Shown piece after piece: positions 33,045 through 51,577 of a DNA stretch of 64,000 nt; positions within the stretch are counted from its first letter, which is position 1; each line of letters begins with the position of its first letter. The stretch is taken from contig JBAZSC010000001.1 of the NCBI GenBank assembly GCA_041662665.1, positions 1,511 through 65,510 of the forward strand, given 5' to 3'. The stretch is from Patescibacteria group bacterium. GTDB taxonomy: Bacteria > Patescibacteriota > JABMPQ01 > JAQVVF01. The position numbers and the translations under genes were made by a program. The notes beneath the pieces were generated by a model. The model saw only the letters and a program-made list of their open reading frames with translations, was not told the DNA's origin and did not search any database.

Positions 33045-33251
33045 AAAATCCGCACTTTTTAAAGCCTATTTAACAGGCTTTTTTTATTTTTAAATCACAT
33101 CCGCTTATATCCGCATTAGAATCCGCGCATTTCCGTATCGCAAATATATAAAAATTTATGCTATATACAATAAATGCGCCCAAAACACAACAAAACAATA
33201 ATTAATGAAATAAAAAAAGAGGCGTTAACCTCTAAAAGAAAAAAAAGAACT

Positions 33252-34997
33252 TCAGCGTGCAACCTGCAAGCTGTATCCATTCGGATCATCATGAAGACTG
33301 ACATCAAGTCCAGGAGTAGGACTTGCAACATCAGGCGTCAACAACATCCAGTTGCCAAGCGTGCTCGAGAAATTGAAGTAGACATATGCCATCGTTGTCG
33401 GCAACGGATAGGTCATCATCTTCAATGCTTCGTCATACTGACCATGCACGTAATCACGCAGATAGTATTCGTTGCTGACAGGATCGAAAGCATACTCTTC
33501 AGTCCAGAAATAAACTCCAGGCCAATTCACTGCTTCATCACCCATCAGATAGATGTTGGAAGCGTCAGCGAAGACATCCAGACCATGTGTCATCTGAGCG
33601 ATCACATGTTCGTCAGTCACACCATCGCAGTCGTTGTCGATTCCGTCAGGAAATTCGATCGCCTGCGGATGAATCTGATCGTTGTTGTCATCGCAATCAA
33701 CTGCATCCGGATAACTATCAGAATCAACATCGTCTGCATTGACGCATGCTTCTTCATCAGTCTCACCATCGCAGTCGTTGTCCAATGCATCGCAAGTTTC
33801 CGGAACCGGATTCATCGGCACAGCATTGCAATAGGTCTTGTTCGGCGAAAGCTGGTCCGGATTACAGATCATCTCGCCAAGAGTTGCGCATTCGCCAACC
33901 CCAACCATGCAAGGATCGCCAAGTCCAATGAAGTCTTCGTCAGTCTTGCCATCGCAGTTATTGTCAATGCCGTCGCAGATCTCCGGAGTTCCAGAGTTCA
34001 GAACAGCATTGCAGACCATCTGGCCATCAGCATTGCACATGAATGTTCCAACCGAAACGCAATTGCCATCGCCAACGAAGCATTCTGCACCCAAGCCAAT
34101 GAAATCATCGTCCACCAAACCATCGCAGTCATTGTCCTTGCCATCGCAGATCTCATCAGTTCCATCGATCACGGCAGCATTGCATTCCAGACCAGAGCCA
34201 TCCGCAGTGCAGATATACACGCCCTGGTTGAAACAAACGCCAACTCCGCGTTCACATGTCTGATTCAGATTCACGAAGTCCTCGTCAGTCGATCCATCGC
34301 AGTCATTGTCCTTGCCATCACAAGCTTCTGCAACTGGCGAAACCTCACCTTCACAATTCCAGTTGCCATTCGTGCAAGTGTTGATACCAGGATTGCATTC
34401 ACCTTCCGAAATCCCACAAGGCATCGTCATCTGATCAGTGACGCCATCGCAATCGTTGTCGACATTGTCACAGACTTCTTCAGAAGGCAAACCTTCAACA
34501 GCATCGCACTTCATCGTGTCCTTGCTTCCGCTGCAGATATAGAATCCAGCAGATTCACAAGCACCGATACCAACAAGGCAAGGCTGATTCAGCATCACGT
34601 AATCTTCATCAACTGCATCATCGCAATCGTTGTCCTTGTAATCGCAGAGCTCAAGAGCACCAGGATAGACATCGGAATTGCGAGGATCGCAGTCAACAGT
34701 GCAATCGTCATAGGAATCGCCATCGAAATCAGCATAGTCCACAATCTGATCGCAGTTGTTGTCAATCAAATCACCACAGATTTCTTCAGCTCCAGGCTTG
34801 ATCGACGAATTATTGTCATTGCAATCGCCTGTTTCAGGAGTGAATCCATCGCCATCCTGATCGTTTCCACAGTAATTGTAAACTTCATTCATCGGCTTTG
34901 AAATCGTGTTCAGATCCTGATTGTCATCATTGGTTGCATCGAAACATCCACAAACAGAAACCAACATCAACAATACACACAATCTCTGCTGTCTCAT
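33252..34997 (-). CDS. secreted Cys-rich repeat protein with >=9 C-D-x-x-D-N-D-C-D-G-x-x-D-E putative metal-binding repeats; visibly GC-rich (foreign-looking) gene
   Basis: 581 aa; signal peptide MRQQRLCVLLMLVSVCGC; repeats CDGKDNDCDGSTDED etc.; CAGGAGGGCGAG RBS; antisense ORF 33174..34901 judged spurious. Confidence 0.65.
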   Translation of the reverse strand: MRQQRLCVLLMLVSVCGCFDATNDDNQDLNTISKPMNEVYNYCGNDQDGDGFTPETGDCNDNNSSIKPGAEEICGDLIDNNCDQIVDYADFDGDSYDDCTVDCDPRNSDVYPGALELCDYKDNDCDDAVDEDYVMLNQPCLVGIGACESAGFYICSGSKDTMKCDAVEGLPSEEVCDNVDNDCDGVTDQMTMPCGISEGECNPGINTCTNGNWNCEGEVSPVAEACDGKDNDCDGSTDEDFVNLNQTCERGVGVCFNQGVYICTADGSGLECNAAVIDGTDEICDGKDNDCDGLVDDDFIGLGAECFVGDGNCVSVGTFMCNADGQMVCNAVLNSGTPEICDGIDNNCDGKTDEDFIGLGDPCMVGVGECATLGEMICNPDQLSPNKTYCNAVPMNPVPETCDALDNDCDGETDEEACVNADDVDSDSYPDAVDCDDNNDQIHPQAIEFPDGIDNDCDGVTDEHVIAQMTHGLDVFADASNIYLMGDEAVNWPGVYFWTEEYAFDPVSNEYYLRDYVHGQYDEALKMMTYPLPTTMAYVYFNFSSTLGNWMLLTPDVASPTPGLDVSLHDDPNGYSLQVAR

Positions 34998-40182: not shown

Positions 40183-40264
40183 ATTAATTTTAATATACTA
40201 TATTTTTAAAAATAAAAAAATAGCAGAAAGCTATTTAGTTATTTTGAATTTCTAATTTAGTTAT

Positions 40265-40337
40265 TATTTTAAAGGGGTGGCTAAAGGGAATCGAACCCTT
40301 GTAGCTGCTGCCACAGAGCAGTGCTCTGCCATTGAGC
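40265..40337 (-). tRNA. tRNA-His (anticodon GTG) with encoded G-1
   Basis: minus strand g-gtggcta tagctcaatggcagagc...ctGTGgc...ggttcgattccc tagccac c. Confidence 0.8.
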
Positions 40338-40437
40338 TATAGCCACCACATTTCGAATTATAAATTCCAAATGAAAAATGAAAAATTTTTAATTATCGTA
40401 ATTTATAATTTTTCATTTAAAATTTATAATTCGTATC

Positions 40438-40509
40438 TGCCCCCAGCACGAATTGAACGCGCATCTCTCCCTTAGGACGGGATAGCTCTATCCGTTGAGC
40501 TATGGGGGC
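40438..40509 (-). tRNA. tRNA-Arg (anticodon CCT)
   Basis: minus strand gcccccatagctcaacggatagagc...gtCCTaa...gcgcgttcaattcgtgc tgggggca. Confidence 0.75.
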
Positions 40510-40650
40510 CGGATAGAATCTAATCAAATCAACCATAACAATACAATTATATATGAAAAATAACACTTGGTCAATTCATTTTCTTGCCAAAATTAATATA
40601 TTATGCTACTTTACGTTGAACGTTCTTTCACAACCAGAGGGAGGAAAACA

Positions 40651-41353: not shown

Positions 41354-43270
41354 ATGACGTTTCTCTGGGCTTTGATCGTAAGTTTGTTTGGCGCACAGAG
41401 CCTTGTAATTGACAATCGAAAGACAAGCTACATTTTCCACGCAGTCATTCGTTGCGTTGTTTACTTGGTTTTGATATGGCTCATCCAGTATAAAGTTTTG
41501 ATCACTTTTGATGGCATCAGAACATTTACGGTAATTCTATGTCTGTTTTTGATCAGCAACGGCTATGATCTATTTATCAATAGTGATTGTGGTGATGGAG
41601 AAGTCAGTAATTCAGGACTTGTAACAATGGTTATCGGAATTCTAGTCTTAATTGCTCTGCCAATTTGTACTAGCGATTGTGGCCATGCAGACACGCTTTA
41701 CCAAAAAGCAGCTTCAATGCAAGTTGATGCAAGCAAGTTCAATCAAAATCCAGTTGATGAAAATCATATTCGAGTTGTGCCAAGAGAAACAGCTTTGAGA
41801 ATTGCTCGTGAAAAGATTTCTTCAAGCGGTCAAAACTATGGCGCCTATTACCAGTTTGAAGATGCGACAATGACTATTCAGAAGGTTAATGACAGATTGT
41901 ATTGGGTCGCGCCAATGGAATTTGGCGGATTCTTCAAATCAATGAATGCAGGAAAAACATCACCAGGCTACATCATGATTTCAGCTGAAGATGAGACAGA
42001 AAAGCCTCGATTGATTACCAAAAAAGCTGACAAATCAGAAATGAAAATGCTATATCTAATGTCAGCATATTTTGGGAACGCGCTAGATAGATATTTGTAT
42101 AATGAGCATCCAGATTGGTACCTCGCTGATTTCTCGTTTGAAATTGATGAGCAGTTGAATCCATGGCAAGTGGTTACAGTTCTTGATTGTTTCAAGGGTT
42201 ACGATTATTACACTATAAAGGGTGTCTTGGTTGTCAATCCGGAAACAGGTGCAGAGAAATTCTACAAAGTAAATGATATTCCAAACTGGGTTGATCGAGC
42301 TGTACCTCAAGAATTGGCAATTGATTATTTCAAATGGTGGGGCACTTACAAGCATGGTTGGATGAACAATGTGAATGCCAATCCAGACTTGAAAAAGCCA
42401 ACAGAAATTGGTGAAAAGAGCGCTGTTGAAATGGTTTGGGGATCTGACGGTGAGCCGTATTGGTTCACAGGCTTTACCTCAATGAATGACAATGATCAAT
42501 CGCTAGTCGGCAAAGCTTTCATGGATTCAAGGACTGGCAAGTTCTTCTTTCTTCCTGCAAGTGGTGCAACTGAAGAGCGAATTGAAAGCGATATCTTGGC
42601 AGCACTTGGCAAGCAAGTTGTTGAGCAATCACCAACTGAGCCTATTCCTTACAATATGTATGGTCAGCCAAACTGCTGGGTTGCACAAGTGATTTCAATG
42701 TCAGGAAAGAGTCATTCCGGAGGAGCTCTTGTTAAAATTGCAATCGTAAATGGTGATACATCTTCACCACCAATTCTGGCTGATAGCAAAAAGGAAGCAC
42801 TGACACTATTCAAAAAGACTTTGTCACAACGAGGAATTCAGGCAACAGTCAGTGACACAAGCGAAGTCAAAGAATACAAGGGTAAGATTGACCGCCTTAG
42901 CATTATCCCGCAAGAAAAATCAACCAGCATTCGCTTCAGTCTCGAAGGAATGCCATTGGAATTTGCTTGTGATGTCATGAAGTCTGATCAAAGCAAGACA
43001 TCTTTGACACTAGCCAAGCCTGGTGATGTTGTCAGTGTCAAATACTTTGAAACCAAAGAGCGAGTCGTGACAGTTGATGATTACACAGTAGAAGGACAAT
43101 CCCCAATTATCTCGCCAAATCAAGAAAGATCTGACGAAATGATGAGACAACAAGAAGAGTTAGAGCAAGAGCAAGATCCACATAGAGTTCTTCCAGGCCT
43201 AGAGGGACTAGAAGAAATAGTCAATCCAAATAGTAGAAAGCCAGATTGGCGAGGTCTTATTCTCTACTAA
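41354..43270 (+). CDS. large hypothetical protein with N-terminal TM helices (638 aa), translationally coupled to upstream gene
   Basis: GAGGAGGCAAAG RBS inside the end of the upstream gene; ATG 1 nt after its stop; no family recognised. Confidence 0.5.
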   Translation: MTFLWALIVSLFGAQSLVIDNRKTSYIFHAVIRCVVYLVLIWLIQYKVLITFDGIRTFTVILCLFLISNGYDLFINSDCGDGEVSNSGLVTMVIGILVLIALPICTSDCGHADTLYQKAASMQVDASKFNQNPVDENHIRVVPRETALRIAREKISSSGQNYGAYYQFEDATMTIQKVNDRLYWVAPMEFGGFFKSMNAGKTSPGYIMISAEDETEKPRLITKKADKSEMKMLYLMSAYFGNALDRYLYNEHPDWYLADFSFEIDEQLNPWQVVTVLDCFKGYDYYTIKGVLVVNPETGAEKFYKVNDIPNWVDRAVPQELAIDYFKWWGTYKHGWMNNVNANPDLKKPTEIGEKSAVEMVWGSDGEPYWFTGFTSMNDNDQSLVGKAFMDSRTGKFFFLPASGATEERIESDILAALGKQVVEQSPTEPIPYNMYGQPNCWVAQVISMSGKSHSGGALVKIAIVNGDTSSPPILADSKKEALTLFKKTLSQRGIQATVSDTSEVKEYKGKIDRLSIIPQEKSTSIRFSLEGMPLEFACDVMKSDQSKTSLTLAKPGDVVSVKYFETKERVVTVDDYTVEGQSPIISPNQERSDEMMRQQEELEQEQDPHRVLPGLEGLEEIVNPNSRKPDWRGLILY

Positions 43271-43296
43271 TATTTAATATCTTTGTACCTTATTTA

Positions 43297-43318
43297 ACCG
43301 CAATCGCGGTTTTTTTAT
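43297..43318 (+). terminator. rho-independent terminator
   Basis: accgcaatcgcggt hairpin + tttttttatttt. Confidence 0.6.
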
Positions 43319-43320
43319 TT

Positions 43321-43400
43321 TCAGAGCGTCAGAACGTCAGACCGTAGGACCGTCAGACCGTCTGAGCTTCGGAACGTCGGAACGTCAGATCGTCAGACAT
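43321..43400. repeat. GC-rich word repeat (cgtcagaacgtcagaccgtaggaccgtcagaccgtc...)
   Basis: same family as 16402-16548; complementary arms at 43545-43600, 43755-43850 and 43895-43950. Confidence 0.55.
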
Positions 43401-43732
43401 TAGAACTTAAAATTTATAAGTTTAAAAGTTTAGATTTTGGATTGCTTAGCCTCGAAATATTAAAGATTAAAGCTGTCGGAACTCTCCGACTAATTTTCTA
43501 TAGTCCAGCCCTCAAACAAGATACTCCGAAATCCGACGTTCTCACATTCTGATTTCCTACGCTCCGAAGCTCCTACGCTCTGTTCTTATCCTGTGCATAA
43601 CTATAGGATAACCTGTGTTTTAGTGCCTTTTAGCTGTTGGCAATTTAATTGAATAAGTGTTACAATTATGTCGGAAGTGTCGGACATTTCCGACAGTAGC
43701 TTAAATAAGGCAAAAAGTCTGTTTCTGCTCAA

Positions 43733-43752
43733 AATGTTCCACGTGGAACATT
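43733..43752. promoter_or_regulatory. perfect 20-bp palindrome AATGTTCCACGTGGAACATT (operator-like site 1)
   Basis: read directly; a 24-bp perfect version recurs at 44771-44794 on the other side of the TrmB-family gene. Confidence 0.6.
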
Positions 43753-43951
43753 CGTGGAGCGTCGGAACGTCAGAACGTAAGAGCGTCAGATCGTCAGTTC
43801 GTCGGACGGTCGGACCGTCGGACCGTCGGAAAATCCTAACTCAGGATTATAATCCAATGCCTAGAAATTCCACGTCCAACGCTCAAACATTCATACGATC
43901 TTCCGTTCTGACGTTCCGACGCTCCGACGCTCCGACGCTCATCACACAAAT

Positions 43952-44701
43952 ATGGACATCCGCGAATCGTTACAACAATTTGGTCTAAAACTCAGCGAGT
44001 CAAATCTTTACCTCGCTGGTTTAAAGTTGGGCAAAGCAACAGTTAATGCCCTGTCAAAAGAAGCCAATGTAAAAAGAACAACAGCTTATGACAGTTTAGA
44101 GAAGCTAAAAAAAATCAAACTTACAAAAGAGTACAAAAAGGGGAGATCTACAATCTATGAAATGAGTTCTCCTGAAAGTCTTCGCGATACATTAAAAATG
44201 CAAAGAGAAAAATTAATAGAACAAGAAGTCCTACTCACCGACCTTATTCCTAATATCAATGACTTTTTGAAATCAGAAACAAAGGTTGAAAATATTAAAA
44301 AGTGTGATAAGATTGAAGACATCAAGCAGATTTTGTTCGATCTTTTCTTATCTAAAGACAAATTGCTAATCATGGGATCCGACAAATACTTAAGCGAATA
44401 TTTAGATAAAATGAAATTCCTAGATAAATTTTTAAGTCAAAGAATCTCTAAGAACAACAATATCTATATCGTTACTGATGCAAAAGACATTGTTACTGGT
44501 AAATACCCTGCTGATCAATCATCTCCTCATTACAAATTTACGCCTAATCAGATTGACTTCAAATCATTAATTTTAATTTCGGGAAATCGTTTCTTGCAAA
44601 TTCATTTCAACGCAAAAGTTACAGCACTATATATAGAAGACAAACATTTTATTTCAGCAATGAGATATTTCTTTCAATTCTTGTGGAATTCATTGAAATA
44701 G
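43952..44701 (+). CDS. TrmB-family transcriptional regulator
   Basis: 249 aa; N-terminal winged-HTH GLKLSESNLYLAGLKLGKATVNALSKEANVKRTTAYDSLEKL matches the TrmB HTH pattern. Confidence 0.6.
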   Translation: MDIRESLQQFGLKLSESNLYLAGLKLGKATVNALSKEANVKRTTAYDSLEKLKKIKLTKEYKKGRSTIYEMSSPESLRDTLKMQREKLIEQEVLLTDLIPNINDFLKSETKVENIKKCDKIEDIKQILFDLFLSKDKLLIMGSDKYLSEYLDKMKFLDKFLSQRISKNNNIYIVTDAKDIVTGKYPADQSSPHYKFTPNQIDFKSLILISGNRFLQIHFNAKVTALYIEDKHFISAMRYFFQFLWNSLK

Positions 44702-44745
44702 AAGCAGATCTGGCGCTGATTTCGAACGCAGATGCGACGCTGATA
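44699..44745. repeat. 3'-end-associated GCTGAT-word element beginning at the regulator's TAG stop
   Basis: tagaagcagatctggcgctgatttcgaacgcagatgcgacgctgataac; same family as the repeats at the 3' ends of trmL and NUDIX genes. Confidence 0.5.
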
Positions 44746-44770
44746 ACTCTAAATTTAGTTTTGCGAGTAT

Positions 44771-44794
44771 AAAATGTTCCACGTGGAACATTTT
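44771..44794. promoter_or_regulatory. perfect 24-bp palindrome AAAATGTTCCACGTGGAACATTTT (operator-like site 2)
   Basis: read directly; preceded by TATAAA; followed by acgtgggaa x2. Confidence 0.6.
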
Positions 44795-44871
44795 GGGAAC
44801 GTGGGAAATGAGAGATGAGAAATGGGAAGTTGTTCCCACATCCCACTTCTCACGTTCACGCTTCACATTTT

Positions 44872-44942
44872 CGGGACATAGTATACCGGTAGTACGCGTC
44901 CTTCGGGAGGATGTAGACTGAGTTCGATTCTCAGTGTCCCGA
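44872..44942 (+). tRNA. tRNA-Pro (anticodon CGG)
   Basis: cgggaca tagtataccggtagtac...ttCGGga...gagttcgattctc tgtcccg a. Confidence 0.8.
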
Positions 44943-45070
44943 TAATCGAATAACAAAATAACAAAATTCTAAATAACAAAATTGCCGACGTCGTAATTTA
45001 GTTATTTAGCATTTAGCCCGCCTGCATCGCTATGCGAAGCATTGCGGGCAGGTTATTTATAATTCACGCT

Positions 45071-45141
45071 GGGCCTATATTATAGTGGTAATATATCGCA
45101 TTCGCATTGCGGGGACGCGAGTTCGATTCTCGCTAGGTCCA
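45071..45141 (+). tRNA. tRNA-Ala (anticodon CGC), AT-rich D-arm
   Basis: gggccta...tcgca ttCGCat tgcgg...gcgagttcgattctcgc taggtcc a; G3:U70 present. Confidence 0.7.
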
Positions 45142-45224
45142 AATCAACTTTTAACAATTAACAGTTAACATTTAACAATCGCAAAAAGTGTTAATTGTTA
45201 AAAGTTAATGGTTAAATGTTAAAA

Positions 45225-45296
45225 GGGCAATTAGCTCAGTGGTAGAGCGTTCCGTTCACATCGGAGAGGCCAGTGGTTCGATACCACTATTGCCCA
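45225..45296 (+). tRNA. tRNA-Val (anticodon CAC)
   Basis: gggcaattagctcagtggtagagc...ttCACat...gtggttcgataccac attgccc a. Confidence 0.85.
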
Positions 45297-45363
45297 TTCA
45301 AAATAATTTTCAATTACCAATTTACAATAAATTTCCAATATTTAATTTTCAATATAAAACAAA

Positions 45364-46815
45364 ATGTTCAAAAAAATCATCAAGAATTCATATTTATACT
45401 TATTTTACGCCTTTCTATTTACAATTCCTTTTCAAAAGCGTCATATATTCAATTTAGCGACTGCAAAAATAGGTGATATCTTTGTTGAATGGCAAACAAT
45501 CACTATTTATGCGTCAGATATTTTGTTTGCATTATGCTTGATTTTTTGGGTAATTAATTTAATTCTTGTCAAAACAAAAAAGCAAGAAAATCACCCTACG
45601 GGTGACCACTCGAAGGGTGGCAATAAAACAAACCCTTTCATATTCATATTGCCGATAGCAATCTTCTTTTTCAGCTTAATAAGTGTTTTTGTCAACTATA
45701 ATAACTATTTAGATCACAATGTTGCGATCTTCAGAATGATCAAGCTAGCAGAATTCATTCTGCTTATTATTTTTATAATCTTAAATTTAAACACAAAAAA
45801 GAGGCTTATTTCAGCCATTTATGTTCTAATTACATCAGGTGTGTTATCTTCAATCTTAGTCATTATTCAGTATTTAAAACAACAGACTCTAGGATTAACA
45901 ATATTAGGCGAGCCATTAGTATTACCAGTACTTCAAAATGTTGCCAAAATAGTCCTAGACAATGGCAATGTGATTATGCGAGCTTATGGCACTTTTCCAC
46001 ATCCGAATGTTCTAGCAGGCTTTTTGCTAGCAAGTATGGTAATTCTGATAGGATTAATGATTTATCAGCTCAATAATTATGGCTTAGATAAGCCAAAATA
46101 TAGAATATTGACAATTTTGCTAAGTTTTGGTCTAATTTTAGAATTCATTGCTTTCATCTTTACATTTTCAAGAACAGCTTGGATTGCCTTTGTTATAGCT
46201 TTAGCAATCTTAGTTATTAGTTTAAGAAAGAAAATAGTCATTGCTCTAAATAATATCAAAACAAACAGCTTTTATCACCCATTTATCATTATAATTTTGG
46301 CAATTATATTCATCATTGTTGCGCAATGGCCACAAATTACTGCACGAGCAGCAATCGCTGATCAAAATGGCGACAAAGCTGTTTCAAATCGCGCTTTTTA
46401 CAATCAGATTTCATTTAACATGATTAAGTCTCATCCATTTTTTGGAATTGGCTACAATAACTTCACTAGCCAAATGTCAAAATATACAAATCAAAAAATT
46501 GAATGGTGGCAATACCAGCCGGCACACAATATCTATTTGCTGATTTTTGCAGAATCTGGAATTTTCAGTTTGTTGTCATTTTTAGGGCTAATTATTGTTA
46601 TTAGTTATCAGTTATCCGCCTTTGCTTTCGCTTCGGCGGACAAGCAAGTTAACAGTTCGATATTTAATTTTGTTTGTTTTAGTATTCTCGTTGCTTTTCT
46701 TTTTATCGCATTATTCGATCATTATTTATGGACGATTCAACAAGGTCAACTATTATTTTGGCTGGTACTTGGTTTAACAGCAACAAAAATTAATCAACAA
46801 AAAATCGAGAAATAA
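45364..46815 (+). CDS. O-antigen ligase/polymerase-family (Wzy_C-type) polytopic membrane protein
   Basis: 483 aa; ~10 TM helices; HPFFGIGYNNF...AHNIYL...ESG motif typical of O-antigen ligase domain. Confidence 0.65.
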   Translation: MFKKIIKNSYLYLFYAFLFTIPFQKRHIFNLATAKIGDIFVEWQTITIYASDILFALCLIFWVINLILVKTKKQENHPTGDHSKGGNKTNPFIFILPIAIFFFSLISVFVNYNNYLDHNVAIFRMIKLAEFILLIIFIILNLNTKKRLISAIYVLITSGVLSSILVIIQYLKQQTLGLTILGEPLVLPVLQNVAKIVLDNGNVIMRAYGTFPHPNVLAGFLLASMVILIGLMIYQLNNYGLDKPKYRILTILLSFGLILEFIAFIFTFSRTAWIAFVIALAILVISLRKKIVIALNNIKTNSFYHPFIIIILAIIFIIVAQWPQITARAAIADQNGDKAVSNRAFYNQISFNMIKSHPFFGIGYNNFTSQMSKYTNQKIEWWQYQPAHNIYLLIFAESGIFSLLSFLGLIIVISYQLSAFAFASADKQVNSSIFNFVCFSILVAFLFIALFDHYLWTIQQGQLLFWLVLGLTATKINQQKIEK

Positions 46816-48208: not shown

Positions 48209-48295
48209 GCCAGCATAATATAATAAAAATATGAATAATCGCTAGCGGAATAATGTGCTTCTTAGGGAACAAAATATTAGGGAACAAAATTCTTT

Positions 48296-48556
48296 CTAGG
48301 AATGGTAAACGTACCCCTTTCCATCCATATCCCAGACGTAGATCTTCCAGCCGTCAACGTTGTCCTTAGCCGTCGACACCATCGGGTAGGAGCTGTTCAG
48401 GATGGTCATCTCGAGCATCCCGTACAGAACGATCGCCATCGGGTAGTTCTTGTGGTAGCACGAGGGCACGTACCCGACCTCCTGGACACACGCGATGGCT
48501 TTCTGGTAGAGAACAAATCCAAGCGCGTCCAGTCCGTTCACCTGGTTCGTGATCAT
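48296..48556 (-). CDS. hypothetical protein (86 aa), GC-rich cargo gene
   Basis: GGAGAGG RBS; palindromic operator-like agcatcatg...catgatgct upstream; bounded by TIR elements. Confidence 0.45.
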   Translation of the reverse strand: MITNQVNGLDALGFVLYQKAIACVQEVGYVPSCYHKNYPMAIVLYGMLEMTILNSSYPMVSTAKDNVDGWKIYVWDMDGKGYVYHS

Positions 48557-48655
48557 CTGCCTCTCCGTTGCCTGTTCTCACAGGCTCAAGTGGCTGCACT
48601 TGCAGCATCATGATGACATTTTATCAGCATGATGCTACAAGTCAGATGTTTTAAA

Positions 48656-48719
48656 GATCCTCACAATTTTGGAAACTAGTAGAGAGTAATACACTCATGT
48701 TCCAAAGCTGTGGGGATCC
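48656..48719. repeat. MITE-like element with terminal inverted repeats gatcctcacaattttggaa / ttccaaagctgtggggatc
   Basis: 64 bp; longer family members at 48920-49016, 49674-49790, 50026-50100. Confidence 0.65.
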
Positions 48720-48809
48720 TGCAAAACTTACGTCTTACAGGAAAGGTACAATCGCCGAGAGAGGATCTCGACTTCCCGTTGCCCTATTCGTAGAATCAGG
48801 CATTGGGCA
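48720..48809. repeat. 90-bp repeat 'B' (tgcaaaacttacgtcttacaggaaaggtacaatcgccgagagaggatctcgacttcccgttgccctattcgtagaatcaggcattgggca), copy 1
   Basis: identical copy at 49791-49880; each abuts the 3' end of a minus-strand small-peptide ORF. Confidence 0.7.
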
Positions 48810-48817
48810 ATCAATGT

Positions 48818-48901
48818 TCAGGCGAGTAAACCGTACAAGCACGCAGAAGCAATGATGAGGGCGAAAAGAAATACACCATCAAGCACCAGATTCTTGATCA
48901 T
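48818..48901 (-). CDS. small hydrophobic peptide (27 aa) MIKNLVLDGVFLFALIIASACLYGLLA, type I toxin-like
   Basis: CAGGAGGAACGACAA RBS; single TM helix; stop immediately adjacent to repeat B. Confidence 0.35.
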   Translation of the reverse strand: MIKNLVLDGVFLFALIIASACLYGLLA

Positions 48902-48919
48902 TTGTCGTTCCTCCTGAAA

Positions 48920-49016
48920 GATCCTCACAATTTTGGAACAAGAGATTTCAGAAGGGGAAGGGATTTCCTTCCGACCTCCGACATCCGATTTCCGATTTCC
49001 AAAGCTGTGAGAATCC
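48920..49016. repeat. MITE-like TIR element (long form with internal ccgacctccgacatccgatttccgatttcc word block)
   Basis: same termini as 48656-48719. Confidence 0.65.
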
Positions 49017-49273
49017 GCCAGAAAAAATAATTGAATATTTTACTAGCGGAGAAAGTACCAACAATAATAATGAGCACAGGTGGTCCATTCTTCCGAGTCC
49101 TCCGCCTTCTGCTACAACTCAAGCTCTGCTTGGTCGTCGTATGCAGATTAAGGCTGAACCTTGAGGACGAACAAAGCCTTACAGCTTTGCCCTTCTCGGA
49201 CCGCGGGTTTTGCAGGGAACCCATGGTTAAACCCTCCAGCAAGTCTTAACGCTCTTGCTGGTAGCGTGACACA

Positions 49274-49534
49274 CTACTTTTCGTCCATCTTGAACGAAAA
49301 GTCGTGGACTCCACCAAGCTTATCCTGCACCCTGACGTACAGAGTGCCGTAAGTGGGGATCCGACCCGCCGTGCACGCGTATGTGCGGCTCTCGACGTTT
49401 CCCGAGGCGAACAGACTCGCCTCGCGGATGATGTTCCTTCCCTCCTCCGCCAGGAACCAGGTCCTGGCGATCTCGCCCGTCCAACCGGGCATTGGTCCAC
49501 CGACCAACGCCAAACACTCATCCATCCTCGTCAT
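49274..49534 (-). CDS. hypothetical protein (86 aa), GC-rich cargo gene
   Basis: GAAGGAGAG RBS + ATG; imperfect 45-bp palindrome aatcaccatcataatgattattgagtaatcaacataatggtgatt upstream; overlapping alternative-frame ORFs judged spurious. Confidence 0.45.
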   Translation of the reverse strand: MTRMDECLALVGGPMPGWTGEIARTWFLAEEGRNIIREASLFASGNVESRTYACTAGRIPTYGTLYVRVQDKLGGVHDFSFKMDEK

Positions 49535-49673
49535 AAAACTCTCCTTCGCCCTTTTTTAGGGCGGCTTGCCTCCAGATTGACACCGAGTGAAATCTCGGTA
49601 TGGTCACTCTGTCGGCTCTTTTCAATCACCATCATAATGATTATTGAGTAATCAACATAATGGTGATTAAAAA

Positions 49674-49790
49674 ATATTTTAAAGATCCTCACAATTTTGG
49701 AAACTAGTAGAACAAGGGATTTCAGAAGGGGAAGGGATTTCCTTCCGACTTCCGACATCCGATTTCCGATTTCCAAAGCTGTGGGGATCC
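49674..49790. repeat. MITE-like TIR element (long form)
   Basis: gatcctcacaattttggaaactagtagaacaagggatttcagaaggggaagggatttccttccgacttccgacatccgatttccgatttccaaagctgtggggatcc. Confidence 0.65.
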
Positions 49791-49880
49791 TGCAAAACTT
49801 ACGTCTTACAGGAAAGGTACAATCGCCGAGAGAGGATCTCGACTTCCCGTTGCCCTATTCGTAGAATCAGGCATTGGGCA
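49791..49880. repeat. 90-bp repeat 'B', copy 2 (identical to 48720-48809)
   Basis: read directly. Confidence 0.7.
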
Positions 49881-49889
49881 GGAGTTAGC

Positions 49890-50009
49890 TCAGTGATTGA
49901 TGAAATACCACATGAGGTAGGAGACGACCATCCCAACGCCTACGCCGGCGAGGAATGTGACTGCGAGTTTTGCCTTCAAGGGCAACAGATCCCATTCGCT
50001 CTGTGGCAT
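49890..50009 (-). CDS. small hydrophobic peptide (39 aa) MPQSEWDLLPLKAKLAVTFLAGVGVGMVVSYLMWYFINH, type I toxin-like
   Basis: TAGGAGGGCGTC RBS; one TM helix with aromatic C-terminus; stop abuts repeat B. Confidence 0.35.
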   Translation of the reverse strand: MPQSEWDLLPLKAKLAVTFLAGVGVGMVVSYLMWYFINH

Positions 50010-50025
50010 GACGCCCTCCTAGTTT

Positions 50026-50100
50026 GAATCCTCACAATTTTGGAATAGTTTCCGACTTCCGAAGCTCTAAAGCTCCGACGTTCCAAAGCTGTGAGGATCC
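50026..50100. repeat. MITE-like TIR element
   Basis: gaatcctcacaattttggaatagtttccgacttccgaagctctaaagctccgacgttccaaagctgtgaggatcc. Confidence 0.6.
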
Positions 50101-50339
50101 GGCAAAATATAAATAACAAAGTATTAAATAGATTGCCGAAAAAGAAAGGGTGCCCTATTTCAATACCGCTTGCGCAGTAAAGAAACAAAGCGTCCTAGAG
50201 TATATGCCATTTCACTGGCTAGCTAGTCAAAAACAAGGCGTTTTTGACGGATGCGCTAGCGAAGTGAAAAGTTCATAAAGTCCATAAAGCTATAAAGTAC
50301 GGAAAGCTGGCAAGCATCAGAATCAGTTCGTGGAAGAAT

Positions 50340-50440
50340 CAGATATCAGAGTTCAACGCTCTGACGTTCAGACGCTCCGAAGTCCCGACGTTCCGAAGCT
50401 CCCACGCTCCCACGCTCCCACGTCCAACCTCCCAGGTTTT
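50340..50440. repeat. GC-rich word repeat (gttcaacgctctgacgttcagacgctccgaagtcccgacgttccgaagctcccacgctcccacgctcccacg)
   Basis: same word family as 16402-16548. Confidence 0.5.
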
Positions 50441-50893: not shown

Positions 50894-51577
50894 ATGAAGT
50901 CTCTAAGCCTTCGGCAAGAAATAATTACTTACCGAAAAAGTGGCTATTCCTACGGGATGATTAGCAAAAAATTTGGTTTATCAAAAAGTACCCTTAGTAC
51001 CTGGCTTAAAGAGATTCCATATACACCTAATAAAGAAGTTATTGATAGAATTGGAAATGCTCGTATGCAATCTGCCACATCGAAGCACAATCAGATGATG
51101 GCTGATATACAAAAAATGAGAAAAGTTGCAAAGGATGAATTAGGAAAATTATCAAAAAGAGATTTATGGATGCTTGGAATCGGTCTTTACATAGGTGAAG
51201 GCAATAAAGCATATGAACAAATAAGATTAACCAATTCCGATCCAAAAATCATACTATTAGCATTAGAATGGTTTAGAACGTTTTGCAATCTTAAAGAAGA
51301 AAATTTTAGAATTAGAATACATATTTATCCAGACATAGTTCCTGATGAAGCACTTAAATATTGGTCAAAAATAACAGGTCTCGCTGAAAAAAATTTTGAT
51401 AAAATTCAAATTGATAGACGTACTAATAAAGTAGCCAAAAAAAGAAGAACGCTTCCATTCGGCACAATTCAAATAGTTATAAAAAGTAATGGTAAGAAAG
51501 AATTCGGAAAAAGTCTTCATCGAAGAATCATGGGTTGGATTGATAATTCTTTAGAACAAATAAATGTGCGGGTGTAA
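50894..51577 (+). CDS. HTH-domain protein with LAGLIDADG-like motif, paralog 2; 3' end embedded in tRNA-Gly
   Basis: 227 aa; HTH GYSYGMISKKFGLSKSTLSTWLK; LGIGLYIGEGNK motif; C-terminal ...QINVRV* = aatgtgcgggtgtaa overlapping the tRNA-Gly(TCC) acceptor stem; homologous over the full length to 27459..28130. Confidence 0.5.
   Translation: MKSLSLRQEIITYRKSGYSYGMISKKFGLSKSTLSTWLKEIPYTPNKEVIDRIGNARMQSATSKHNQMMADIQKMRKVAKDELGKLSKRDLWMLGIGLYIGEGNKAYEQIRLTNSDPKIILLALEWFRTFCNLKEENFRIRIHIYPDIVPDEALKYWSKITGLAEKNFDKIQIDRRTNKVAKKRRTLPFGTIQIVIKSNGKKEFGKSLHRRIMGWIDNSLEQINVRV

Follow-up and report, generated by a model that had tools for sequence, protein, structure and literature searches.

We find that a TrmB-like regulator gene in a Patescibacteria MAG is bracketed by two perfect palindromes that are probably chromosomal parS sites bound by ParB, a reading to which we assign a probability of roughly 0.7, with the regulator gene nested among the sites and probably under their influence. 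ParB is favored as the binder because the 16 bp common to both palindromes are letter-for-letter identical to parS, because their variation is parS-like (core fixed, outermost bases free), because the copies are small in number and clustered, and because a separate operator-like dyad exists at the promoter of the gene. Judged from the DNA, the palindromes are real, conserved, gene-linked protein-binding sites, most likely for ParB, and unrelated to the adjacent tRNA cluster; the sites are of a known kind, in an unusual and conserved arrangement. The features of the locus are given below with coordinates in the window, by which we mean the whole 64-kb stretch of DNA that was analyzed.

43579..43730, plus strand: conserved non-coding block of ~150 bp, in which a DnaA-box-like 9-mer is followed by the promoter and the dyad
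43637..43666, plus strand: sigma-70 promoter predicted for the TrmB-like gene, TTGGCA-18-TACAAT, with the -10 extended by a TG 5′ of it
43669..43695, no strand: second dyad, 12+1+12, TGTCGGAAGTGTC-G-GACATTTCCGACA, at the predicted transcription start
43733-43752: upstream perfect palindrome, 20 bp, AATGTTCCACGTGGAACATT, its symmetry broken by the next pair, A43732/C43753
43735..43750, no strand: upstream site of parS type, TGTTCCACGTGGAACA, the central 16 bp of the 20-bp palindrome
43756..43940, no strand: low-complexity inverted repeat of period-8 GGACCGTC / GACGCTCC arrays, lying between the upstream site and the ATG
43952..44701, plus strand: TrmB-like open reading frame, 249 aa, of predicted TrmB/TrmBL2 architecture (Pfam, profile, AF2 and Foldseek)
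44771-44794: downstream perfect palindrome, 24 bp, AAAATGTTCCACGTGGAACATTTT, its symmetry broken by T44770/G44795
44775..44790, no strand: downstream site of parS type, TGTTCCACGTGGAACA, the central 16 bp of the 24-bp palindrome
44871..45296, plus strand: cluster of tRNA-Pro(CGG), tRNA-Ala(CGC) and tRNA-Val(CAC), the downstream neighbor in lineage A only

The 16-mer common to both palindromes is TGTTCCACGTGGAACA, and its two copies are 1,040 bp apart. The upstream palindrome lies 200 bp 5′ of the TrmB-like ATG and the downstream palindrome 70 bp past the stop; the lengths, positions and bracketing geometry (~200 bp upstream, ~70 bp downstream) put forward in the original prediction are thus read exactly from the coordinates of the palindromes and of the ORF at 43952-44701. 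A search allowing ≤3 mismatches to the 16-mer returned two matches in the 64 kb, both flanking the TrmB-like gene, whereas 100 dinucleotide shuffles of the window gave an expectation of 0.15, and none of the 100 reached two; the claim that such palindromes are improbable by chance is borne out by these numbers. The shorter 12-mer with 2 mismatches (4 found versus 2.1 expected in the window) is uninformative alone. Further copies of the 12-mer and 16-mer were sought across the 64-kb window, and none beyond the two sites was found for the 16-mer; the pattern search proposed for defining a regulon therefore yielded no additional copies there, and their lack over the 64 kb covered argues against a dispersed regulon.

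The sequence TGTTCCACGTGGAACA is letter-for-letter that of P. aeruginosa parS2 and parS3, as given in PMC4368675, and of P. putida parS, as given in PMC7022226, and among the matches listed in a literature search with the exact 16-mer string, all concern ParB-parS. It differs by 1 mismatch, at one symmetric position, from the generic parS TGTTNCACGTGAAACA, which is described as present in most bacterial chromosomes (PMC7022226), and both window sites fit the 16-bp palindrome tGTTNCACGTGAAACa. The parS consensi published in that source have their outermost positions in lower case or as N, and parS copies are typically few and clustered (PMC7022226, Table 1); for P. aeruginosa, one parS close to oriC is reported to be necessary and sufficient for proper segregation (PMC4368675). 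The sites described here are likewise few and clustered, absent from the bulk of the sequence examined, and conserved across relatives independently of their flanks. The resemblance to parS played no part in selecting the finding. Literature searches linking TrmB with parS found nothing relevant, and searches for ParB, parS or ParABS in Patescibacteria, CPR and Saccharibacteria found no report.

The sites stay with the gene in three lineages, which span protein identities down to 39% and GC of 33-51%. Within lineage A, that of the window, orthologs are 92% (L005), 89% (L004), 76% (L006) and 73% (L007) identical; L004, L005 and L006 have a perfect 16-mer on either flank of the gene, and the L007 contig, which stops short of the downstream-site position, has a perfect upstream 16-mer. 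In the lineage A alignments, the AATGTTCCACGTGGAACA block is invariant at the sites and the flanks have freely diverged; the site-to-ATG spacing ranges between 34 and 202 bp, owing to insertions of low-complexity hairpin repeats that are lineage-specific. Lineage B (P0008; L011-L013; GC 0.46-0.49) lacks an upstream copy; its perfect 16-mer falls within the gene, at codons ~69-74, which encode VFHVEH in the wing of the winged-HTH (wHTH) domain, and a downstream site, TGTTCCACGTAGAACA, lies 37 bp past the stop. Lineage C is represented by P0176 (L022; GC 0.51), which is 55% identical to P0008 and has three sites: an upstream one, GGTTCCACGTGGAACA, 10 bp 5′ of the ATG and directly after the dyad; an internal one, AGTTCCACGTGGAACA, in the wing codons at the same position as in lineage B; and a downstream one, CGTTCCACGTAGAACA, 29 bp past the stop. 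The downstream site in lineages B and C is a G11A variant.

At the 7 loci of these three lineages, 14 sites retain the 14-bp core GTTCCACGTGGAAC, and their outermost bases vary among T, G, A and C. When 14-bp cores with ≤1 mismatch are counted at the same loci, the gene zones (gene ±300 bp) contain 14 sites in 9.2 kb, versus none in the other 108.7 kb, and ~0.0015 sites would be expected in the zones by chance. Every ortholog locus (7/7) has between one and three sites, and no 16-mer was found outside the gene locus in the 2 × 20 kb of relatives searched. Of all stretches of identical nucleotides between the lineage B and lineage C coding sequences, the one at the internal site, 18 nt, is the longest, with a third-position identity of 36% and 0.02 such runs expected; the internal site is therefore maintained as DNA, and the comparisons between lineages show strong purifying selection on the sites as DNA. 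Paralogs at 31, 28, 24 and 23% identity, representing four lineages, have no sites within the 5.7 to 21 kb examined; two of these four site-free paralogs come from similarly AT-rich genomes. The conservation in relatives that the original prediction called for is thus seen as a linkage to the gene kept down to 39% protein identity, and instead of copies scattered without relation to the gene, 14/14 sites fall in gene zones.

The surroundings of the gene differ among the lineages. The neighbors are a 638-aa membrane protein and tRNAs in lineage A, a tRNA and a cupredoxin-like gene in lineage B, and NUDIX and riboflavin genes in lineage C; a small convergent gene of 94/98 aa is all that B and C have in common, and A has no neighbor in common with either. 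Control of the tRNA-Pro/Ala/Val cluster, one of the functions originally suggested for the palindromes, is not sustained, as lineages B and C are without such a cluster yet keep the downstream site; on gene order, the cluster is outside the conserved unit. The divergent repeat-rich region, also suggested as a target, is lineage-specific low-complexity hairpin DNA that is different in every relative; the inverted repeat at 43756..43940 is not conserved, being absent or different in L004-L007. A tblastn search of plasmids and a scan of viral contigs found no relatives, and a mobile partition cassette was rejected on these grounds. Scanning JGI metagenomes with the ortholog alignment returned the window organism only.

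The original assignment of a 249-aa TrmB-like winged-HTH gene holds, with Pfam, profile and fold matches in agreement. The product is identical to NCBI protein MFA6295784.1; Pfam TrmB (PF01978) matches residues 7-75 (E 3.7e-11), and the predicted domains are a wHTH (residues ~1-72), a long helix of coiled-coil type (76-109) and, at the C-terminus, a PLD-like domain that is mixed alpha/beta in the AF2 model. A profile of the family matches TrmB 3qph (1.4e-15) and, over the full length, TrmBL2 5bqt/5box (2e-13) in the PDB; its match to AspA is only 1e-3. An AF2 model built with 8 sequences was poor (pLDDT 58) and was replaced by a run with a 134-sequence alignment (mean pLDDT 89.3), for which the best Foldseek matches are TrmBL2, full length at E 1e-12, followed by TrmB with the N-terminal half of its sugar-binding domain and then by PLD-fold proteins. 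Scores to the NCBIfam equivalogs TrmB and TrmBL1 are far under the cut-offs (27 bits versus 650), and by these sequence and model comparisons the protein has a predicted TrmB/TrmBL2 architecture and is no ortholog of a characterized member. An exhaustive HMMER search shows that the family is broad: at E≤1e-3 there are 3,473 representatives, TrmB-like proteins of ~250 aa, and the sole one between 89% and 31% identity is P0008, at 39%.

Upstream of the gene, the conserved non-coding block is 77-79% identical to L004 and L005 over 177-287 nt, with the surrounding DNA unalignable. Rfam scans at gathering and permissive thresholds returned tRNAs only and nothing for this block, and a known RNA element was rejected accordingly. 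The predicted promoter has the top promoter-like score in 43200-45400 (10/12 plus TG), and its TGnTAyAAT block is conserved in L004-L007. The dyad, whose sequence in the window is TGTCGAAAGTGTCCGACACTTTCGACA, begins three bases past this promoter; its consensus over the three lineages, TGTCGrAAsTGTC-s-GACAsTTyCGACA, stands directly 3′ of the conserved promoter, and its left arm is invariant across all three. The arms are 90.5% symmetric, versus ≤46% with the partner slid, and two positions have changed on both arms (A-T to G-C in the window; G-C to C-G in L022). Searching the window with the dyad returned its own overlapping arms and a weaker copy at 43474-43491 (2 mismatches), with 0.10 expected. 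In lineage A the ~17-bp spacer that precedes the upstream 16-mer has saturated substitutions and no indels. A long promoter-proximal palindrome is present in 1/5 paralogs, and as a family trait this was considered too weak to use.

The dyad is a better candidate than the 16-mer for the regulator's own operator, although it could alternatively be a 5′ RNA stem-loop. The upstream 16-mer falls in the predicted 5′ leader, ~62 nt 3′ of the predicted transcription start, and because a different conserved dyad holds the classical operator position, autoregulation can be explained without the 16-mer; the suggestion that the palindromes autoregulate the TrmB-like gene is thus probably wrong. The broader proposal, that they have the shape of a dimeric regulator's operator, stands in part: they look like dimer-type protein-binding sites, non-random and gene-linked, and the binder is probably ParB.

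At the other end of the gene, the downstream site is the apex of a longer hairpin in every lineage, with a lineage-specific outer stem. These hairpins have z-scores of -1.4 to -3.7, and in L011 and L022 the stem is followed by a T-run; the window copy has A4/T4 on its flanks and was not called by the terminator scan. The downstream site probably doubles as the terminator of the gene, and a position in the terminator would help keep the site attached to the gene through rearrangements.

If the palindromes acted at the RNA level only, forming a stem-loop in the leader and an intrinsic terminator, possibly a bidirectional one, and no protein recognized their sequence, one could account for the folding of all downstream copies as hairpin tips with lineage-specific outer stems, for the T-run in lineages B and C, and for the A4/T4 flanks of the window copy. 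We nonetheless consider this very unlikely, since the 14-bp core is invariant in 14 sites without covariation, whereas RNA stems tolerate compensatory change and the outer stems do vary. The same sequence also lies inside the coding region, where a terminator would harm, the promoter and terminator scan gave no terminator at the window copy, and exact identity to parS would go unexplained. A dispersed repeat (REP- or MITE-like), or chance in AT-rich DNA, might be suspected from the nearby intergenic DNA, which is rich in hairpin-forming low-complexity repeats; however, there are just two copies in 64 kb, both at the TrmB-like gene, and the site positions are conserved in 7 loci while the neighboring repeats are different in every genome. 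This explanation is hardly credible, and is effectively refuted by the window copy count together with the gene-zone count, set against the expectation of ~0.0015 sites in those zones.

A rival with more in its favor is that the palindromes are the TrmB-like protein's own operators, or that the protein is a non-ParB reader that competes or cooperates with ParB or replaces it. The adjoining gene does encode a TrmB-type wHTH protein, and the site co-occurs with the regulator gene across genomes, in 7/7 ortholog loci and in none of the 4 paralog lineages (≤31% identity). Such an exclusive link between a site and the gene of a DNA-binding protein across unrelated contexts (all 14 sites in the 9.2 kb of gene zones and none in the remaining 108.7 kb, with lineage A having no neighbors in common with B and C) is as expected of a self-binding protein and tells against ParB. 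So does the absence of ParB and ParA from the 206 kb examined, and the placement of sites within the gene and on either side of it resembles that of parS in and around parB genes; the fold, moreover, is like that of TrmBL2, an archaeal chromatin protein, and the wHTH is weakly like that of AspA, an archaeal centromere binder. Even so, binding by the TrmB-like protein seems unlikely to us. We estimate that the 16-bp palindromic operator of an unrelated regulator would coincide letter for letter with the ParB site in only ~1 in 10,000 to 1 in 1,000 cases. The upstream site, ~62 nt past the predicted start, is off the promoter, and lineage B has none, so that the site is not at the gene's own promoter in all orthologs; a different conserved dyad is already at the operator position, and autoregulation needs no site inside the gene or past its stop. 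The known TrmB-family motif, TATCAC-N5-GTGATA, is also unrelated to the 16-mer. A more specific form, in which the TrmBL2-like protein and its 2-3 sites would make up a portable ~1-kb centromere cassette, the protein itself reading the parS palindrome, is if anything more doubtful; the protein would then be a centromere binder where ParB has been lost, or a competitor or partner of ParB.

The wider region offers evidence both against and for binding by ParB. No ParB or ParA homologs were found in the window or related loci, 206 kb in total, by Pfam scans of ~50 ORFs or by six-frame tblastn with B. subtilis Spo0J and Soj, which gave noise only. Many CPR genomes carry ParB annotations. The 40 kb to the left of the sites and the 20 kb to their right contain neither dnaA nor a parAB operon, no Pfam match to DnaA was obtained among the ~50 window ORFs scanned, DnaA boxes are not significantly enriched in the window, and the cumulative GC skew flattens without turning or reaching a minimum. 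The window genes recognized by Pfam among these ORFs include H+-PPase, NusA, a UvrD-like helicase, FtsH, TilS, S1, GyrA, L19 and Cmk, along with type IV pilus genes, and there are 17 tRNAs. Genes are mostly on the minus strand up to ~40.2 kb (GC skew near -0.2) and on the plus strand from 40.6 kb (skew near 0), placing a strand switch and a change in GC-skew slope at ~40.5 kb, 3 kb from the sites. A DnaA-box-like 9-mer, TGTGCATAA (TTATGCACA on the minus strand), lies at 43592-43600, 140 bp upstream of the upstream site, and 9-mers of this kind also occur 5′ of the dyad in lineage C and in lineage A, where L006 and L007 have perfect ones. The strand switch, the skew change and these 9-mers are compatible with an origin-proximal location.

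Comparison with known systems places the sites closest to chromosomal parS of the ParB/Spo0J type, with which they share the same 16 bp, few copies within ~1 kb, an invariant core with free outer bases and, in some lineages, a copy inside a coding sequence; B. subtilis has a parS inside spo0J. Unlike chromosomal parS, the window sites accompany a TrmB-like gene instead of parB, there is no parAB or dnaA nearby, and the host is a Patescibacteria MAG in which ParB was not found in the 206 kb examined. ParB is described as a local transcription modulator at P. aeruginosa parS3 and parS4 (PMC5521831), and in S. pneumoniae it is described as spreading into com genes (PMC4488948). By analogy with these two cases, in which parS adjoins or lies inside a transcription unit, ParB could affect expression here; unlike in either, a whole gene is enclosed and the arrangement is conserved across lineages. 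P. furiosus TrmB (3qph) and TrmBL2 (5box/5bpd/5bqt) have the same combination of wHTH, coiled coil and PLD-like domain as the window protein, but the latter is bacterial, is just 14-15% identical to TrmBL2 in structural alignment and scores far below the NCBIfam cut-offs. The AspA-ParB-ParA system of the Sulfolobus plasmid pNOB8 (PDB 5k5o, 4rs8) also has a winged-helix protein encoded beside a palindromic centromere. However, AspA has ~90 aa with no coiled-coil or PLD-like domain, comes from an archaeal plasmid and gives a marginal wHTH match (E ~1e-3), and the window locus has no adjoining ParA or ParB; by analogy, the likeness would bear only on the possibility that the TrmB-like protein reads parS.

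Taking ParB as the probable binder, we propose that a ParB encoded elsewhere in the genome would bind both sites, with ParB dimers loading on the 16-bp parS as a CTP-dependent clamp that would serve chromosome organization and segregation. The TrmB-like gene would be nested in a small parS cluster, with one site in its leader and one capping a terminator-like hairpin, and with a third inside the coding sequence in other lineages (an internal copy being present in B and C). Loading or spreading of ParB over ~1 kb would be expected to influence transcription of the nested gene, and the regulator would use the separate dyad at the transcription start to control its own promoter. The linkage may be passive: the sites are interleaved with promoter, ORF and terminator, and rearrangements may simply carry them along, because those that keep the gene intact cannot detach sites in the leader, the coding sequence or the terminator. 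It may also be functional, if coupling of expression to ParB occupancy is useful.

Taken alone, the palindromes would be ordinary bacterial centromere sites, and an apparent operator is re-labelled; they are a likely landmark for the segregation center of an uncultivated Patescibacteria chromosome. What is not routine is the nesting of a TrmBL2-like gene among parS sites, conserved in three lineages, with one site in lineages B and C falling in the codons for the DNA-binding wing of the protein itself and preserved as DNA. Binding by the TrmB-like protein would be the more remarkable result, if true, as it would define a new class of parS reader, a non-ParB family recognizing the universal bacterial centromere sequence. 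If ParB binds, the gene would be a candidate ParB-controlled, cell-cycle-coupled regulator in hosts whose cell biology is barely known.

At the start of the TrmB-like gene (window 43952-44701, plus strand, 249 aa), upstream-extended ORFs are annotated in some assemblies, in which gene callers ran through the parS site, the ParB-type centromere palindrome, to give 292- and 269-aa products:

L006 2096-2224, TrmB-like ORF over-extended upstream through the parS site
L007 718-777, TrmB-like ORF over-extended upstream through the parS site

The over-extended L006 product begins ...MFHVEH..., and these annotation artefacts arise because the parS palindrome gives the stop-free peptide MFHVEH whichever of the two strands is read.

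The intergenic spacers of the window, above all those near tRNA genes, are filled by hairpins made of short-period (7-8 nt) low-complexity repeats:

43321-43397, 43756-43940, 44795-44870, imperfect long hairpins
44949-45014, 45143-45225, 49742-50434, imperfect long hairpins

The repeat 'alphabet' differs from hairpin to hairpin, as in GGACCGTC/GACGCTCC, TTAACAA/TGTTAAA and AATAACAA, and because relatives bear other repeats at corresponding positions, we regard these repeats as fast-evolving.

Two segments set the window apart from L004 and L005, ortholog loci of the same lineage (lineage A: the window and L004-L007):

~48235-50080, GC-rich block, up to 63% GC per 200 bp against a 33% background
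50894-51577, plus strand, 227-aa ORF, HTH_28/transposase-type HTH at its N-terminus

The GC-rich block is missing from L004 and L005, which are otherwise collinear with the window, and on this sequence comparison it is a strain-specific insertion; no credible ORF was found in it, and searches against Rfam, permissive thresholds included, gave no matches. The 227-aa ORF lies between tRNA-Pro(TGG) and tRNA-Gly(TCC), overlapping the start of the latter, and the absence of its segment from both loci points to a likely insertion of mobile or homing type.

Further left, gene orientation flips sharply at ~40200-40600, being mostly minus to the left and all plus over 22 kb to the right, and the GC-skew slope changes from ~-0.2 to ~0 between tRNA-Arg (40438-40509, minus) and the ORF at 40603 (plus). 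This switch could mark an origin, or merely a divergent gene block; dnaA was not found within the 64-kb window. Also on this side is a repeat protein gene:

33174-34997, minus strand, 581-aa MopE-type repeat protein (Pfam E 4e-53)

It encodes at least eight MopE-type putative metal-binding repeats and lies in a locally GC-rich segment, where the opposite strand is open for 575 aa, nearly the full length of the gene.

Another AT-rich genome (locus L018) has three TrmB-like paralogs packed into 8 kb:

L018 2600-3391, 6132-6893, 9348-10121, paralogous TrmB-like genes, ~255 aa

The first has a separate palindrome with 13-bp arms, ATATAATAGCTAT-GG-ATAGCTATTAT, over a -10-like TATAAT.

In lineages B (L011-L013) and C (L022), a small gene is convergent to the TrmB-like gene; no counterpart was found in lineage A:

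L011 2012-2296, minus strand, 94 aa
L022 4017-4313, minus strand, 98 aa

The two proteins share 36% identity. Each starts with a basic N-terminus and has a single C-terminal TM helix, and neither has a match in Pfam or NCBIfam.

Upstream of the conserved dyad (12+1+12, window 43669-43695) at the TrmB-like gene's predicted transcription start are DnaA-box-like 9-mers:

window 43592-43600, TGTGCATAA
L006 ~2017; L007 ~505 and ~533, perfect TGTGGATAA
L022 ~3019, CTATCCACA

None was found there in lineage B. In lineages A and C they lie 24-87 bp from the dyad, against a background rate of ~0.07 per 230 bp, and they could provide a DnaA input to the promoter of the TrmB-like gene.
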